Below the pieces are notes generated by a model. The model was not told the origin of the DNA, searched no databases, and saw only the letters and a program-made list of their open reading frames with translations. From Gammaproteobacteria bacterium (GTDB taxonomy: Bacteria > Pseudomonadota > Gammaproteobacteria > Eutrophobiales > Eutrophobiaceae), in assembly GCA_965221455.1 (NCBI GenBank), contig OZ244890.1:2142290-2206289 (forward strand): 64,000 nt of DNA, written 5' to 3'. Position 1 is the stretch's first letter. Each line of letters begins with the position of its first letter. Below, piece by piece: positions 28,921-57,637 of the stretch. Position numbers and translations under genes: made by a program.

Positions 28921-29180
28921 CTCACACTCTCATCACTCAAAAGAGAAAGGTACGAAACCCTGAAATGATACGCAACGCATCGTTTGCAATCGTGGGTGGT
29001 GATAGTGACCCAAATCAGGCTAAAATCCGTCCATGGGATATGCACTGTTAAAGGAAAAACCGCCTCTAGGGCCAAAAGTAGCTCCTCGGCCAAAAACGGC
29101 AATGGAGCGAGCCGGAGAGCGTTGGTTTAGCAGGGAAAAGTCGCATCTTAAGCTAGGATGCGCGTCAGTTGAAGTAGTTC
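28921..29180 (+). repeat. Leader element fused to orphan Rhs (homolog at 57491-57692, minus)
   Basis: TCACACTCTCA...AGG.ACGAAA.CC...ATGGGATA.GCACTGTTAAAGGAAAAACCGC...CGTTGGTTTAGCAGGGAAAA...GTT, then Rhs. Confidence 0.75.
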
Positions 29181-29773
29181 ACCCAGACCATCTGGGGACA
29201 CCGCAGAAGATAACCAATCAGGCACAAGCGACTGTATGGGAAGCGACGTATACGCCGTTTGGGAAAGCGACGATTACCACTAGTACGATTACGAATAATC
29301 TGAGGTTCCCCGGCCAGTATTACGATCAGGAAACGAATCTGCACTACAACTTAAACCGTTATTACGATCCTCAACTCGGAAGATATATTACCAGTGACCG
29401 TATAGGACTTGCTGGTGGCATGAATAGCTATGGCTATGCACTACAAAATCCGATTAGGTATGTTGACCCGGATGGGCGTATTCCGATACCAGTGTTTACC
29501 GGGGCAGCAGGTGCTATTGGTGCTTTCATAGGCACTGCATCTACTGGTGGTAGCCCAAGGGAGATTATTCGGGCTGCTGTCATCGGCGGTTTGGCGGGTG
29601 CTGGCGCAGGTTTGGGATTAGCATTTGTACCTGGTGCTGTTGCTGGCACCATCACCACACCGGGGATTACACAGGCCATTACTGGTATTTTGGGTGGAGT
29701 GTTGGGTAATACCCTGAACGGACTGGACTTGGTGTCACAGGTTATGGGAGCAGAGCCAGATGAGTGCCAGTGA
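29033..29773 (+). CDS. Orphan Rhs C-terminal cassette A1 (Gly-rich hydrophobic tip)
   Basis: HPDHLGTP...LRFPGQYYD...YVDPDG, then tip IPIPVFTG...[12 protein letters not shown]. Confidence 0.8.
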   Translation: MGYALLKEKPPLGPKVAPRPKTAMERAGERWFSREKSHLKLGCASVEVVHPDHLGTPQKITNQAQATVWEATYTPFGKATITTSTITNNLRFPGQYYDQETNLHYNLNRYYDPQLGRYITSDRIGLAGGMNSYGYALQNPIRYVDPDGRIPIPVFTGAAGAIGAFIGTASTGGSPREIIRAAVIGGLAGAGAGLGLAFVPGAVAGTITTPGITQAITGILGGVLGNTLNGLDLVSQVMGAEPDECQ

Positions 29774-30104
29774 ATCCTGGCAAACCAGAGGTATACAGCT
29801 ACTCTATCTTTGGGCCTATATCAATCTGTTGTTGTATATGGTCTATGCTGTGTCCCTGATCATGGGCTGGGCAGAAGCTTGGGAAGGTGAAGGTGGTGAC
29901 TGGCTTGTAATTTTTGGCTGTTTTCTTTTTCCTGGTTTAGGAATTTTTGCCTTATGGGCGCGTAATGAGTTTGATTGGGTGACCCTGGAGCAAGGTGGTC
30001 AGGTTGGGCTGTTCAGTCGTGCTATCTGGATATCTATGGGTACAATGATGAATATAGGAAGCAGTTATATCTACTGGCGGGATACCTTGCCTTTGTTTAA
30101 GTAA
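29760..30104 (+). CDS. Putative membrane immunity protein A1
   Basis: Overlaps the tip stop; 3 TM segments; paralog of 47507-47848. Confidence 0.75.
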   Translation: MSASESWQTRGIQLLYLWAYINLLLYMVYAVSLIMGWAEAWEGEGGDWLVIFGCFLFPGLGIFALWARNEFDWVTLEQGGQVGLFSRAIWISMGTMMNIGSSYIYWRDTLPLFK

Positions 30105-30142
30105 ATCGTTCTCTGGTTTTGTAACCTTCCCCAACTTAGATA

Positions 30143-31029
30143 TGTAACCCTCCCCAAAAATAGTCTCATGCAAGATGTTGTGATTTTGTTCATACCAGAG
30201 AGAGACAGGAGAACAAAATGCAACCGAAGACATTTAGCGAAAGCCAGATATTCAAGATACTGAAAGCAGCAGAAAACGGACGTGCAGTAAAAGATTTATG
30301 CCGAGAATATGGCATGAGCGATGTGAGTTTTTATCGCTGGCGTTCCAAATATGGCGGTATGGAATTAGCTGATATCCGCCGCATGAAAGAACTGGAGAAA
30401 GAAAACAATCAGCTTAAGAAAATGTTTGCCGATTTGAGCCTGGAGAATACCGCCCTCAAAGACCTTATCGAAAAAAAGCTCTGAGTGTAGATACCAAAAG
30501 AGAAAATATTTTGTATCTTCACCAAACCCACAAGTAGAGTATTCGGCAAGCCTGTTTGGCCTTGCAGTTGAGTCGCTCAGTGTATCGTTATCAGCCCAAA
30601 CCCAGAGACGATACGCCGCTGATTGATGGGCTATTAGCACTGCTGGAACAATATCCACGTTTTGGGATTAAAAAGCTGTTCATTCTGTTGAGGAAACAAG
30701 GCCATGGCTGGAATCATAAGCGCGTGTATCGGGTTTACTGCCAATTGGGACTTAATCTGAAACGGCGCACGAAAAAACGATTGCCGGGTCGGTATCCCCA
30801 AGTACTGGCCATCCCGGCATCAGTAAATCAATGCTGGTCGATGGATTTTATGAGTGATTGTCTCTACGACGGCCGTCGATTCCGAACACTGAATATTGTC
30901 GATGACTTCAACCGAGAAGTCCTGGCCATTGAAGTTGATTTGAGTTTAACGGCTGAACGCGTGGTGCGTGTGCTGAATCGACTCAGTGAATGGCGTGGCT
31001 TACCTCAAGCGATTCGTGTTGATAATGGC
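30143..31029 (+). mobile_element. IS3-family (IS407-like) copy 1, 3'-truncated, orfB fused in frame to Rhs
   Basis: IRL TGTAACCCTCCCC; orfA 30218-30484 intact; A6G slippery site; TAG early in the orfB frame; WSMDF...RVDNG junction. Confidence 0.88.
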
Positions 31030-55354: not shown

Positions 55355-56554
55355 TGTAACCCTCCCAAAAAACAGTCTCATGCAAGATGTTGTGATTTTG
55401 TTCATACTAGAGAGAGACAGGAGAACAAAATGCAACCGAAGACATTTAGCGAAAGCCAGATATTCAAGATACTGAAAGCAGCAGAAAACGGACGTGCATT
55501 AAAAGATTTATGCTGAGAATATGGCATGAGCGATGTGAGTTTTTATCGCTGGCGTTCCAAATATGGCGGTATGGAATTAGCTGATATCCGCCGCATGAAA
55601 GAACTGGAGAAAGAAAACAATCAGCTTAAGAAAATGTTTGCCGATTTGAGCCTGGAGAATACCGCCCTCAAAGATCTTATCGAAAAAAAGCTCTGAGTGT
55701 AGATACCAAAAGAGAAAATATTTTGTATCTTCACCAAACCCACAAGTTGAGTATTCGGCAAGCCTGTTTGGCCTTGCAGTTGAGTCGCTCAGTGTATCGT
55801 TATCAGCCCAAACCCAGAGACGATACGCCGCTGATTGATGGGCTATTAGCACTGCTGGAACAATATCCACGTTTTGGGATTAAAAAGCTGTTCATTCTGT
55901 TGAGGAAACAAGGCCATGGCTGGAATCATAAGCGCGTGTATCGGGTTTACTGCCAATTGGGACTTAATCTGAAACGGCGCACGAAAAAACGATTGCCTGG
56001 TCGGTATCCCCAAGTACTGGCCATCCCGGCATCAGTAAATCAATGCTGGTCGATGGATTTTATGAGTGATTGTCTCTACGCCGGCCGTCGATTCCGAACA
56101 CTGAATATTGTCGATGACTTCAACCGAGAAGTCCTGGCCATTGAAGTTGACTTGAGTTTAACGGCTGAACGCGTGGTGCGTGTGCTGAATCGACTCAGTG
56201 AATGGCGTGGCTTACCTCAAGCGATTCGTGTCGATAATGGCCCAGAATTCATCTCATGTGCTTTAGCTGATTGGGCAGATGACCATGAAGTTGAACTCAA
56301 ATTCATTCAGCCGGGCAAACCCACACAGAATGCTTATATAGAACGATTCAACCGGAGTTTTAGAACCGGGGTACTGGATTATTATATGTTTGATTCACTT
56401 AACCAGGTCAGAGAAATCGTTCACCAATGGATGATCCAATACAACGAGCAACGGCCTCATGAGGCTTTAAATAATTTAACACCGATGGAATTTTTACAAC
56501 AATTTAATGCAAAATCACGACAGAATGAATGGATCTAATTGAGGGAGGGTTACA
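55355..56554 (+). mobile_element. Full-length IS407-like element (1200 bp), copy 4
   Basis: TGTAACCCTCCC...GGGAGGGTTACA; orfB 55723-56538 with complete DDE; orfA has TGA. Confidence 0.92.
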
Positions 56555-56582
56555 AATTTCATCTGGATTTCCTGTTAGTTTC

Positions 56583-56915
56583 CTAAAGCCCAAAAACATC
56601 TAAAAGGTATATACTAAATACGCCGATGACAGGTAGAAATATAATCATTTGAAAGGTCTTGTAACTGATCTTGAAGGTAGTTTTTTCGTTCTCAAACATC
56701 TCGGTATACATCCAATGACCCCATATCATGGGAATGAATACAAGACAAAGCCCAGCAATTATAGAAATCAGCAAAGGTTCATTTTCATTTAAGAAGGCAA
56801 AAAAAGTGAATAGTCCATTGGCAATACAAAAATACAGCTTATAGGTAGCGACTTGATAGCCATCGGCCTTACGCTTCTGTACGAAAATAACGGTGGCAAT
56901 GCAACAGATAATCAC
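56583..56915 (-). CDS. Putative membrane immunity protein E
   Basis: Multi-TM; downstream of tip E. Confidence 0.7.
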   Translation of the reverse strand: MIICCIATVIFVQKRKADGYQVATYKLYFCIANGLFTFFAFLNENEPLLISIIAGLCLVFIPMIWGHWMYTEMFENEKTTFKISYKTFQMIIFLPVIGVFSIYLLDVFGL

Positions 56916-56959
56916 ATAGACAAATAATTGCCAAGAACCGGGGGCGATCTGAATGATAC

Positions 56960-57637
56960 TTACTCGCAGTTATTTGGTTCGTCTTCTTGACAATTAGGCG
57001 CGTCAGGATTGAGCAAACAGAACTGGCGTTGGATTTGTTCACTGACAGGATCCAGACTATTAGCACTAGGCAAAGGAACAGGTAAAACAGGATCGAAGCC
57101 ACCCATCTCCTCTGCACCGGCACCTACAGCAGTATTCAGTAGTAGATCCAGACCAATCCCCAGACCCGTTGCAATGCGGCTGCTGCCCCCACCAAAACCT
57201 GCAACAAAACCACTAGCGAGTCCAAAAGCACCGCCCTCAAGGCCAGCATAAAACGAAGCTATTGGATCACGTGTCACACTGAAGGTACCAACAAATGCTC
57301 CAAAACCACCACCAACTGCACCAGCTGCAGCACCCGTCAAAGGATTTAAGGCAATACTCCCATCTGGGTCAACATACCTGACAGGGTTTTGCAGTGCATA
57401 GCTATAAGTATTCGCACCCCCAGCAAGACCTATACGGTCACTGGTGATATATCTTCCGAGTTGAGGATCGTAATAACGGTTTAAGTTGTAAACAATTAGA
57501 CCTGATGCGGACTCTGGATCAGATTGCGGTTTTTCCCTGCTAAACCAACGGTCTGCGGCGCGTTCCGTTGCCGTTTTTGGAGAGGAACTTAAATTTTGCC
57601 CTAGAAGCGGTTTTTCCTTTAACAGTGCGTATCCCAT
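56960..57637 (-). CDS. Orphan Rhs cassette E with leader-derived N-terminus
   Basis: YNLNRYYDP...DPDG-SIALNP...[32 protein letters not shown]. Confidence 0.78.
   Translation of the reverse strand: MGYALLKEKPLLGQNLSSSPKTATERAADRWFSREKPQSDPESASGLIVYNLNRYYDPQLGRYITSDRIGLAGGANTYSYALQNPVRYVDPDGSIALNPLTGAAAGAVGGGFGAFVGTFSVTRDPIASFYAGLEGGAFGLASGFVAGFGGGSSRIATGLGIGLDLLLNTAVGAGAEEMGGFDPVLPVPLPSANSLDPVSEQIQRQFCLLNPDAPNCQEDEPNNCE

Follow-up and report, generated by a model that had tools for sequence, protein, structure and literature searches.

Polymorphic toxins usually consist of a constant delivery part, sometimes a pre-toxin domain, and a variable toxin that extends up to the stop codon. Several described systems act on membranes. 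The Rhs tip Tse5-CT of P. aeruginosa inserts into membranes and depolarises cells, and it is countered by Tsi5, a protein with two transmembrane segments (PMC9637101). Systems of contact-dependent growth inhibition (CDI) include glycine-zipper ionophore toxins with small membrane immunity proteins (PMC11630599), and Tox-WTIP is one pore-forming polymorphic-toxin domain listed by Zhang et al. 2012 (PMC3482391). In class II microcins, which are glycine-rich toxins of the inner membrane, uptake is set by the C-terminus and activity by the N-terminus; the last 32 residues of microcin V (MccV) determine its uptake through Cir, and MccV and MccL are alike in those 32 residues only (PMC10233263). The present analysis concerns ten Rhs open reading frames (ORFs) at positions 29033-57637 of a 64,000-nucleotide window of the gammaproteobacterial contig OZ244890.1 (the window is the whole stretch of DNA that was analysed, and coordinates refer to it). 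Nine ORFs are located on the + strand and one on the - strand, and seven of their toxin tips end in a common Cys-rich module, here called the tail. A conserved, portable element behind the toxin falls outside the usual polymorphic-toxin scheme. In the favoured reading, to which a probability of about 0.6 is assigned, the locus is an orphan array with tips that would depolarise membranes, like Tse5-CT and microcin V in function, and with a tail that would form an acidic, disulfide-locked cap outside the cytoplasm.

With Tse5 (PA2684) and Tsi5 the locus shares a hydrophobic tip behind the DPxG site, the lack of an enzyme motif and a small integral membrane protein encoded by the adjacent gene, which in the window is a putative immunity protein (PMC9637101, PMC11630599). 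The inner membrane as common site of action is predicted for the tips of the window by analogy. Tse5 differs in being full-length, PAAR-like and delivered by VgrG and a type VI secretion system (T6SS), whereas the window ORFs have no N-terminal part, the genome has no T6SS and the full-length relatives look Sec-exported. In the PDB matches Tse5 is represented by the shell chain 8cp6_B (1121 aa) only, so the likeness to Tse5-CT is one of description. A C-terminal Cys tail is not mentioned in the consulted portion of the Tse5 article, and the word 'cysteine' has 0 occurrences in the article (PMC9637101). Since a pore-forming Rhs tip with membrane immunity is already known from Tse5-CT/Tsi5 (PMC9637101), the proposal of an undescribed polymorphic toxin class in the initial annotation of this DNA was overstated. 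As a whole, the array is a relic with toxins of a known kind, and its C-terminal Cys module is real, rare, portable and undescribed, with a function that we infer.

The CDI ionophores (CdiA-CT groups 1-6) have helical glycine-zipper tips, small membrane immunity proteins and an exchangeable accessory domain with a predicted disulfide (PMC11630599), to which the tips, the putative immunity partners and the tail of the window correspond. Compared by description, their entry domain is located N-terminal of the toxin and they use two-partner secretion, whereas the module of the window is found at the extreme C-terminus. Microcins V and L (CvaC/Cvi) resemble the window tips and their putative immunity partners in their Gly/Ala-rich activity part, Pro-rich linker, Cys-loop C-terminus of ~32 residues and small membrane immunity protein. 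Their C-terminal part is common to two toxins with differing activity parts and determines uptake (PMC10233263). In CvaC (NC_007675), the Gly/Ala-rich part and the Pro-rich linker are followed by the end ...RLCNWSPNNLSDVCL with a penultimate Cys. The loop spacing differs, with C-x8-C and a third Cys in the window and C-x10-C in CvaC.

Conservation, portability and rarity of the tail

Seven of the ten tips (T2, T4, T5, T7, T8, T9 and T10; Table 1) end in SL(D/A)Pxx(E/K)xxxxQFCxxx(D/N)AxxC, followed by 5-7 residues, a Cys and one last residue, which agrees with the seven Cys-rich tails noticed in the initial annotation. The first two Cys are spaced C-x8-C and the third is penultimate. T1 and T6 keep ...AEP(D/ESS)ECQ only. 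The pattern FC..[NH][PL][DN]A..C was found seven times in the six-frame translation of the 2.5-Mb genome, and since all matches are located at the seven tips, chance is excluded. In the aligned tails (n = 18), F, C, C and C are invariant and S, N, P and N nearly invariant. The module of ~32 residues is composed of a short helix, an F-C-x2-N-P-x-A-P-N-C loop, an acidic spacer and the penultimate Cys; its net charge ranges between -3 and -6. In the AlphaFold2 (AF2) model of tip E, the tail residues ~101-125 were predicted best (predicted local distance difference test, pLDDT, 82-93), with a helix at residues 107-116. Pfam and NCBIfam hold no tail family.

Between tip families the tails are 52-83% identical, compared to 17-39% for the bodies. 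Their nucleotide identity between families was found to be 55-72% over 69 nt, with up to 14-16 synonymous changes in 23 codons; the tails of C1 and E, for example, share 91% of their protein and 72% of their nucleotide sequence and have 14 synonymous codon differences in 23 codons. The tail codons are overlapped by the partner gene in the B and D families and not in C or E, so the overlap cannot account for the conservation. The tail evolves under protein-level constraint, separately from the bodies. The earlier suggestion that it is a DNA homology arm for tip swapping between two constant segments is consistent with the tail being a constant segment 3' of variable tips. However, the nucleotide identity is low and the differences are mostly synonymous, so that the tail is conserved as protein and not as a DNA arm. 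In addition, it precedes the family-specific immunity gene, where a crossover would unlink the pair, and no breakpoint of the duplicated blocks described below is located at the tail. This role is given next to no weight.

The sole PDB match of the tail profile was the CP12 C-terminal disulfide-loop peptide 3zdf_C (E 0.16), in which the tail rqFCelNPnAPNCq is aligned with QQYCDDNPDAAECR. Pfam CP12 (PF02672) was found in 2 of 18 tails with a best E of 0.0085, below the curated cut-offs, and the L005 tip gave an E of 0.25 (12.6 bits compared to the cut-off of 22.7). The likeness consists of an aromatic-C-x2-N-P-x-A-x2-C loop after a helix at the C-terminal end, whereas CP12 is a Calvin-cycle regulator without the third Cys. 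The match is taken only as a hint of an 8-residue loop closed by the first two Cys, which probably form a candidate disulfide loop after the helix. CP12-like loops in the window are located, for example, at 57022 (-) and 54808 (+). The same matches could be explained by a redox peptide that docks on a dehydrogenase or another protein of the target cell as part of the toxic action. Since they all remain below the curated cut-offs and span 14 residues only, and the capped toxins appear envelope-acting, this explanation is very unlikely.

To see how widely the tail is distributed, 1.84 billion representative proteins were searched with a profile built from the nine glycine-rich tips, at a cut-off of E<=1e-3. 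A total of 18 matches was obtained: 12 tail-bearing proteins from outside, all with the tail at the extreme C-terminus, 4 proteins of this genome or nearly identical to them, 1 false match to a repeat protein and 1 A-like tip without tail. The tail profile matched 5 loci among 185,579 species represented by a single genome each (the loci belong to uncultured Gammaproteobacteria, Thiogranum, Halioglobus and a Myxococcota) and 14 loci in 241 million metagenome records. Within the own order of the window, the tail occurs in 4 of 126 genomes, this one counted. In all loci with sufficient visible sequence upstream, the tail is part of an Rhs tip; the search on and off Rhs proteins that had been recommended for it thus revealed an Rhs link, apart from short remnants and one ORF composed of a membrane protein plus tail (P0016).

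Besides glycine-rich tips, the tail is found on bodies with a single hydrophobic stretch (L003, L032, L028, L009), soluble alpha/beta bodies (L005, L033 and, in a same-genus genome, L049/L103), a hydrophilic and very basic body (L011), a soluble body (L026), a beta-like body rich in Gly and Ser (L034-L036) and one further body (L031/L037). After removal of the tail, 19 bodies formed 15 BLASTP components at E<=1e-3, or 7 kinds in a conservative grouping. As a portable element, the tail caps toxin bodies of at least seven BLAST-unlinked kinds on Rhs proteins. Some close homologues lack it: the A tips align with the B tips yet have no 32-residue tail core, and in L002 a C-like tip with the tail is directly followed by a C-like tip ending in ...TTNGCD, both with C-like partners. 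The view of the tail as a constant module behind variable bodies is supported, as it is better conserved than the bodies, absent from close homologues and present on unrelated bodies elsewhere. It is not peculiar to glycine-rich peptides, since it also caps soluble, basic and beta-like tips.

The soluble tail-bearing type (L005 7578-8075; L049 32-466; L033 3-323) has conserved H...D...HxH-like residues and is followed by ORFs with signal peptides. Its AF2 model was weak (mean pLDDT 60.5, predicted template modelling score 0.57), and a Foldseek search with this model against the PDB gave no match at E<=0.001. Highest in probability (0.51-0.66, TM-score ~0.35) were Hedgehog N-terminal (LAS-fold) domains. 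This tip may be a candidate periplasmic zinc-peptidase toxin, a motif-based guess for which the Foldseek rows are only a hint. For the other tail-bearing bodies and the T3 tip, no family was found in Pfam.

Terminal Cys are also common in the order beyond the tail itself. Matches to the 672-residue Rhs core in other genomes were considered if they reached residue 669 or beyond; 68 were counted, and the downstream sequence was fetched for 60. Three were not fetched (one of them too near the contig start), 5 were already in the set and 1 was dropped for masked bases, resulting in 59 Rhs tips of 22 other genomes (L043-L101). A Cys in the last three residues was identified in 24 of the 59 tips, compared to 6.6% for 3-mers from the interior of these tips and 4.7% for ORF ends of this genome (ORFs of at least 200 aa). 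At least two Cys in the last eight residues were present in 19 of 59 tips and in 0.7% of the same ORF ends, and a penultimate Cys in 11 of 59. Paralogues and related genomes are not independent, so this enrichment is overstated. Typical endings of the surveyed tips are ..CECE, ..CECN and ..CDSCE on unrelated bodies, an acidic C-x-C-x type. In the aligned tips the penultimate Cys is invariant (21 of 21, tail-less ones included). The 32-residue tail looks like the most elaborate case of a lineage-wide Cys capping of Rhs tips, and the enrichment in the order points to a general rule, one that could be checked in Rhs proteins at large.

The invariant penultimate Cys, the terminal enrichment and the occurrence on at least seven kinds of body could also be due to a delivery function. 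The tail and the Cys caps would then be an element of the Sec-type Rhs lineage, as the leading end that leaves the cocoon or as a thiol for tethering or hand-over, and not a property of the toxin, which would explain their presence on any cargo. Against this, near-identical cores in the window are followed by tips of three kinds, some with the tail, some that lack its core (A) and one that has no terminal Cys (T3), so the Rhs shell does not require the tail. Moreover, a Cys in the last three residues is missing from 35 of the 59 tips surveyed, the enrichment is overstated as described, and the core contains two Cys only, which are 8 residues apart and most likely paired together. A delivery function of this kind is considered doubtful.

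In a limited literature search, by which absence is not proven, no description of a conserved element after an Rhs toxin domain was found. In the first 300,000 characters of PMC3482391, the terms 'disulfide' and 'cysteine-rich' are absent.

Tip bodies, membrane partners and the setting of the tail

The tips have a length of 96-136 aa after the DPxG site. In nine of the ten, as initially annotated, a Gly/Ala-rich hydrophobic sequence without enzyme motif was found, with a G+A fraction of 0.23-0.37 and 14-30 small-xxx-small patterns per tip. The exception is tip X of T3, which is an ordinary polar sequence with a G+A fraction of 0.13 and 5 such patterns. Neither Pfam nor NCBIfam contained a family for any tip or partner, or a described toxin family that includes the tail. 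A PDB profile search with whole tips gave no meaningful match. A word-index protein search with tip E at near lengths returned the query alone, and with the tail in longer proteins (5 candidates) nothing. When tip E was compared with 72,556 plasmids by tblastn, three matches at chance level (E >= 2) were obtained. In the ESM Atlas, the look-alikes of tip E were unnamed clusters (0.91, with recognition below the usual mark) and PT-VENN and DUF637 clusters (0.81-0.82), which are regarded as a lead only. Tox-WTIP is similar in being a predicted membrane-spanning helical toxin on RHS proteins (PMC3482391). Membership in this family was rejected, as the RxxR and Wx[ST]IP motifs were found in 0 of 10 tips and no Pfam match was obtained.

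Each of the ten Rhs ends in the array is followed by a small membrane-protein ORF, in line with the ten pairs initially described. These partner ORFs encode 102-138 aa and start -41 to +45 bases from the stop of the cassette. A crude 19-residue Kyte-Doolittle scan revealed 2-4 hydrophobic segments each; the partners are thus small membrane proteins as annotated, with a segment count that extends below the annotated 3-4. Partner families track tip families. The partner of tip X is also a membrane protein of 138 aa (35962-36778 for the pair), yet this tip has no tail, terminal Cys or family.

Composition, the lack of an enzyme signature, the membrane partners and the published precedent support, by analogy, small membrane-depolarising toxins. 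The nine tips would be glycine-zipper helical-hairpin toxins that depolarise the inner membrane of the target, and the small multi-pass protein of the adjacent gene would neutralise them in the membrane. Both steps together are considered likely, with Tse5-CT/Tsi5, the CDI ionophore toxins and the class II microcins as models. The AF2 model of tip E (21 sequences) contains helices at residues 6-29, 32-55 and 66-78 at low confidence. The complex prediction for the C3 tip and its partner scored 0.04 compared to a mark of 0.32, which counts neither way on binding.

Over most of its length, tip E with its tail can be aligned with the tips of the C, D and B families (38-53% identity, E 1e-6 to 1e-16). 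A common origin of A and B is backed by the homology of their partners (30% identity, E 1e-11). These similarities would be expected if the tail were the conserved C-terminal end of one toxin family by shared ancestry, without a separate function. For the bodies without tail, however, BLASTP resulted in an E of 0.012 for E and C (0.01 for the C-like L002 tip) and of 0.017 over 93 residues for A and B; the remaining family pairs did not get below E 1. Together with the tail on soluble, basic and beta-like bodies and its absence from close homologues, this makes shared ancestry alone an improbable explanation. The nine tips as one clearly homologous superfamily were dropped, as the between-family similarity is marginal once the tail is removed. 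Judged from these alignments, the glycine-rich bodies are families of similar build, for which common descent is plausible but unproven.

The compartment of the tail was considered on the basis of related Rhs proteins. The nearest full-length orthologue of the window core is a 1556-aa protein of genome G100 (L024 2922-9247; 69% identity), whose N-terminal segment is hydrophobic and which contains 13 LRR_4 stretches, a TSP3 repeat and RHS repeats. Its gene follows that of a signal-peptide DUF6531/RHS protein and, as read from the translations, adjoins GspE/GspF-like genes. The tip of this orthologue likewise has a penultimate Cys (..IIECK). The tail-bearing Rhs protein of L005 (1491 aa) starts with a signal-peptide-like segment, and TssC (PF05943) was found in 0 of 5 Rhs-bearing relatives. 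The ORFs after L005-type tips have signal- or lipobox-like starts in L033 and L103, and by eye in L005. The other partners encoded next to tail-bearing toxins are for the most part membrane proteins, and CxxC pairs occur in several.

This setting, the acidic charge and the three invariant Cys point to a tail in an oxidising compartment. That the module works outside the cytoplasm is a tentative proposal with somewhat less than even chances. Because of its net charge, the tail should remain on the periplasmic side, where the cap would hold the toxin in its topology and shield its free C-terminus. It may also be a receptor or uptake element, like the common C-terminal 32 residues of microcins V and L. 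If the tail is a device for uptake, topology or stability, it would help to explain the envelope access of Rhs toxins that are independent of the T6SS, and as a small tag it could be tested on other cargoes.

Several points weigh against the favoured reading of membrane-depolarising tips with an extracytoplasmic disulfide cap. The glycine-rich bodies are not provably one family, as the bodies-only BLASTP values are marginal. The structure model of tip E is of low confidence (mean pLDDT 61), and toxicity, membrane insertion and disulfides are predictions. Close homologues without the tail imply that toxicity does not depend on it. The tail has three Cys, which is an odd number, and the A tips, which lack the tail, contain just one, so a simple cap with an intramolecular disulfide leaves the invariant penultimate Cys unexplained. 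The short, sub-threshold likeness to CP12 described above also counts here. In L026, the tail-bearing tip is followed by a cytoplasmic-looking ORF of 193 aa without obvious signal or transmembrane segment, which argues against a strictly envelope-acting set. A tail-bearing Rhs protein of 1267 aa in the same-genus genome G083 has no obvious signal peptide at its called start. Finally, no sequence relation between the tips and MccV was detected (hhalign probability 0.8%, BLASTP E 3.9). The window tips have no double-glycine leader; they start directly after DPxG and would be released by Rhs autoproteolysis. Peptidase_C39 (PF03412), as used for the export of class IIa microcins, is absent from the genome. 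The parallel to microcins is therefore one of design and not of membership.

A wider proposal is regarded as speculative, though a little less so than the delivery function discussed above. The Sec-exported, T6SS-independent Rhs toxins of this lineage might carry an unrecognised class of 'post-toxin' C-terminal Cys caps, of which the 32-residue module would be the most elaborate. Such caps would be needed to reach the site in the target envelope, by receptor binding, outer-membrane passage or exit from the cocoon. They would correspond, among Rhs toxins, to the exchangeable C-terminal uptake module known from class II microcins, and would be movable between cargoes.

An orphan Rhs array without delivery genes

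The Rhs core is closed by a [P/A]xxxxDPxG site in 10 of 10 cassettes. TIGR03696 (Rhs-associated core) matched at E 1e-17 to 1e-28 in all 8 cassette ends scanned, and in a PDB search the core aligned with the solved Rhs shells 8h8a, 7q97 and 8cp6_B. The genome is a single contig of 2,504,188 bases that is rated 100% complete. A tblastn search of the whole genome with the longest core (672 aa) did not reveal a full-length Rhs protein. All matches are 5'-cut copies in the window or belong to two remnants just beyond it; none reaches farther N-terminally, and every Rhs copy thus lacks the N-terminal delivery part of a deliverable effector. TssC (PF05943), VgrG (PF05954) and PAAR (PF05488) had no match in the whole genome, so T6SS components were not found. 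Without a full-length Rhs protein and a T6SS, the usual toxin delivery is impossible here. All ten cassettes at the locus are orphaned Rhs C-termini without an N-terminal part, and together they form a stranded array. Of the tip 'library' initially proposed, the ten cassettes are present, but a full-length Rhs protein and a T6SS to deliver them are not. What may still count in this genome is the set of immunity genes or the internal expression of cassettes.

In T2, T5 and T7, the ORF starts with ~170 residues of an IS3 orfB transposase in frame with the Rhs core. The junction ..IRVDNG|TTTTLTYDARRRLL is identical in all three, and the truncation is therefore older than the duplications. The cut points of the other cores differ: T3 and T6 share one and T4 and T9 another, both apart from the IS3 junction. 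Self-comparison of the window revealed three duplicated blocks, 30140-35884 and 41407-47148 (98.2% identity), 29180-32975 and 46929-50722 (93.5%), and 38580-41316 and 52424-55153 (95.1%). According to these blocks, the cassettes sort as A1/A2, B1/B2 and C1/C2/C3 with single D, E and X, and the array was expanded via segmental duplication. An eleventh cassette with a different tip is located just past the window end (window-equivalent 66153-67287).

The cores are nearly identical, with a synonymous divergence (dS) of 0.015-0.07. Tips and partners of the same family range between 0.11 and 0.92 in dS and between 0.15 and 0.47 in the ratio of non-synonymous to synonymous divergence (dN/dS). By these values they are old alleles under purifying selection, which shows that the cassettes were functional genes until recently at the least. 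Near-identical cores with recombined, diverse tip/immunity alleles behind them are the usual Rhs picture. The orphan rhs arrays of Enterobacteria are similar in their 5'-truncated rhs genes, their tip/immunity pairs and a near-identical core as swap homology (PMC7043789, PMC4436062). They differ in having a full-length main gene beside the orphans (PMC7043789, PMC4436062), which is found nowhere in this genome, where the cores are cut by IS3 fusions. The locus documents an extreme end state of an rhs array, with many intact toxin/immunity alleles and zero delivery genes in the genome.

A leader of ~45 aa (MGYALLKEKPPLG...RERAxxRWFxxEK) with its own ATG is shared by three short cassettes and joined to the last part of the Rhs core only. 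It is located at 29033-29170 (+, T1), at 57500-57637 (-, T10) and past the window end (window-equivalent 66153-66260); the leaders of T1 and T10 are oppositely oriented at the two array ends. The same leader was found on short Rhs-tip proteins of other sources (P0017, P0021-P0023). It could be an expression start or a recombination junction.

The cassettes might be expressed from internal starts, either as toxin-antitoxin-like modules in the producer or as standing immunity against neighbours with full-length versions; the tail would then have no role here. The own ATG and the recurring leader of T1, T10 and the cassette past the window are consistent with this, as are the open frames of all cassettes and the purifying selection on tips and partners. 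In Salmonella, orphan rhs elements are reported to act as toxin-antitoxin modules (PMC7043789). However, dN/dS reflects the history before the recent duplications, given the 1-7% synonymous divergence of the cores, and an acidic tail with three Cys makes little sense in a reducing cytoplasm. Internal expression is rated as unlikely.

Features of the array and neighbouring genes

The features of the array are listed in Table 1.

Table 1. Rhs cassettes (T), membrane partners (I) and IS3-family genes of the array in window coordinates
Feature	Position	Strand	Tip	Tail	Description
T1	29033..29773	+	A1, 29477-29770		Mini-cassette: 45-aa leader (MGYALLKEKPPLG...ERWFSREK) and Rhs core end; tip of Gly-zipper type without tail core, ending EPDECQ
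I1	29760..30104	+			114-aa membrane partner of A1; 72% identity to I6, ~30% to B partners
IS3-family orfA	30218..30484	+			HTH_Tnp_1
T2	30556..33432	+	B1, 33046-33429	33337-33429	IS3 orfB fragment (30556-31029) and 5'-cut Rhs core from 31030
I2	33392..33766	+			124-aa membrane partner of B1; start overlaps tail codons
T3	34174..36372	+	X, 35962-36369		5'-cut Rhs core
I3	36362..36778	+			138-aa membrane partner of X
T4	38744..41029	+	C1, 40649-41026	40937-41026	5'-cut Rhs core
I4	41054..41368	+			104-aa membrane partner of C1
T5	41778..44696	+	B2, 44313-44693	44601-44693	IS3 orfB fragment (41778-42296) and Rhs core
I5	44656..45030	+			124-aa partner of B2; 90% identity to I2
T6	45438..47516	+	A2, 47226-47513		5'-cut Rhs core; tip without tail core, ending EPESSECQ
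I6	47507..47848	+			113-aa partner of A2
T7	48435..51167	+	C2, 50793-51164	51072-51164	IS3 orfB fragment (48435-48776) and Rhs core
I7	51192..51512	+			106-aa partner of C2
T8	51535..52038	+	D, 51685-52035	51940-52035	Short cassette: last ~50 aa of the core only
I8	51995..52411	+			138-aa partner of D; by eye like the ORF after a D-like tip in L001 (8120-8470)
T9	52636..54867	+	C3, 54493-54864	54772-54864	5'-cut Rhs core
I9	54891..55199	+			102-aa partner of C3
IS3 orfB, full-length	55723..56538	+			rve integrase core; source type of the fragments in T2, T5 and T7
T10	56960..57637	-	E, 56963-57358 (start 57358)	56963-57058	Mini-cassette: T1-type leader
I10	56583..56915	-			110-aa membrane partner of E

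A tRNA gene that could mark an integration site was not found within the window. A tyrosine recombinase is located beside orphan Rhs tips in both this genome, where it is split in two ORFs (window-equivalent 64400-65346), and in L001, where it is intact (10443-11399, -).

Between the cassettes, a 345-aa ORF without Pfam family (37193-38230) is located in a low-GC stretch (GC 0.345 for 36001-38000) and adjoined by an HTH_3 regulator at 38234-38656 (-). Truncated copies of a similar HTH-tail ORF were found at 33777-34148 (-) and 45110-45412 (-). The right flank of the array (57678-60009, -) contains a 680-aa ORF and an overlapping 116-aa ORF, both without Pfam family. Directly upstream of the array (27582-28668), a multi-pass membrane ORF of 209 aa comes after a ThsB-type TIR-like gene (PF08937, E 1e-6), and these two could be a candidate pair of defence genes.

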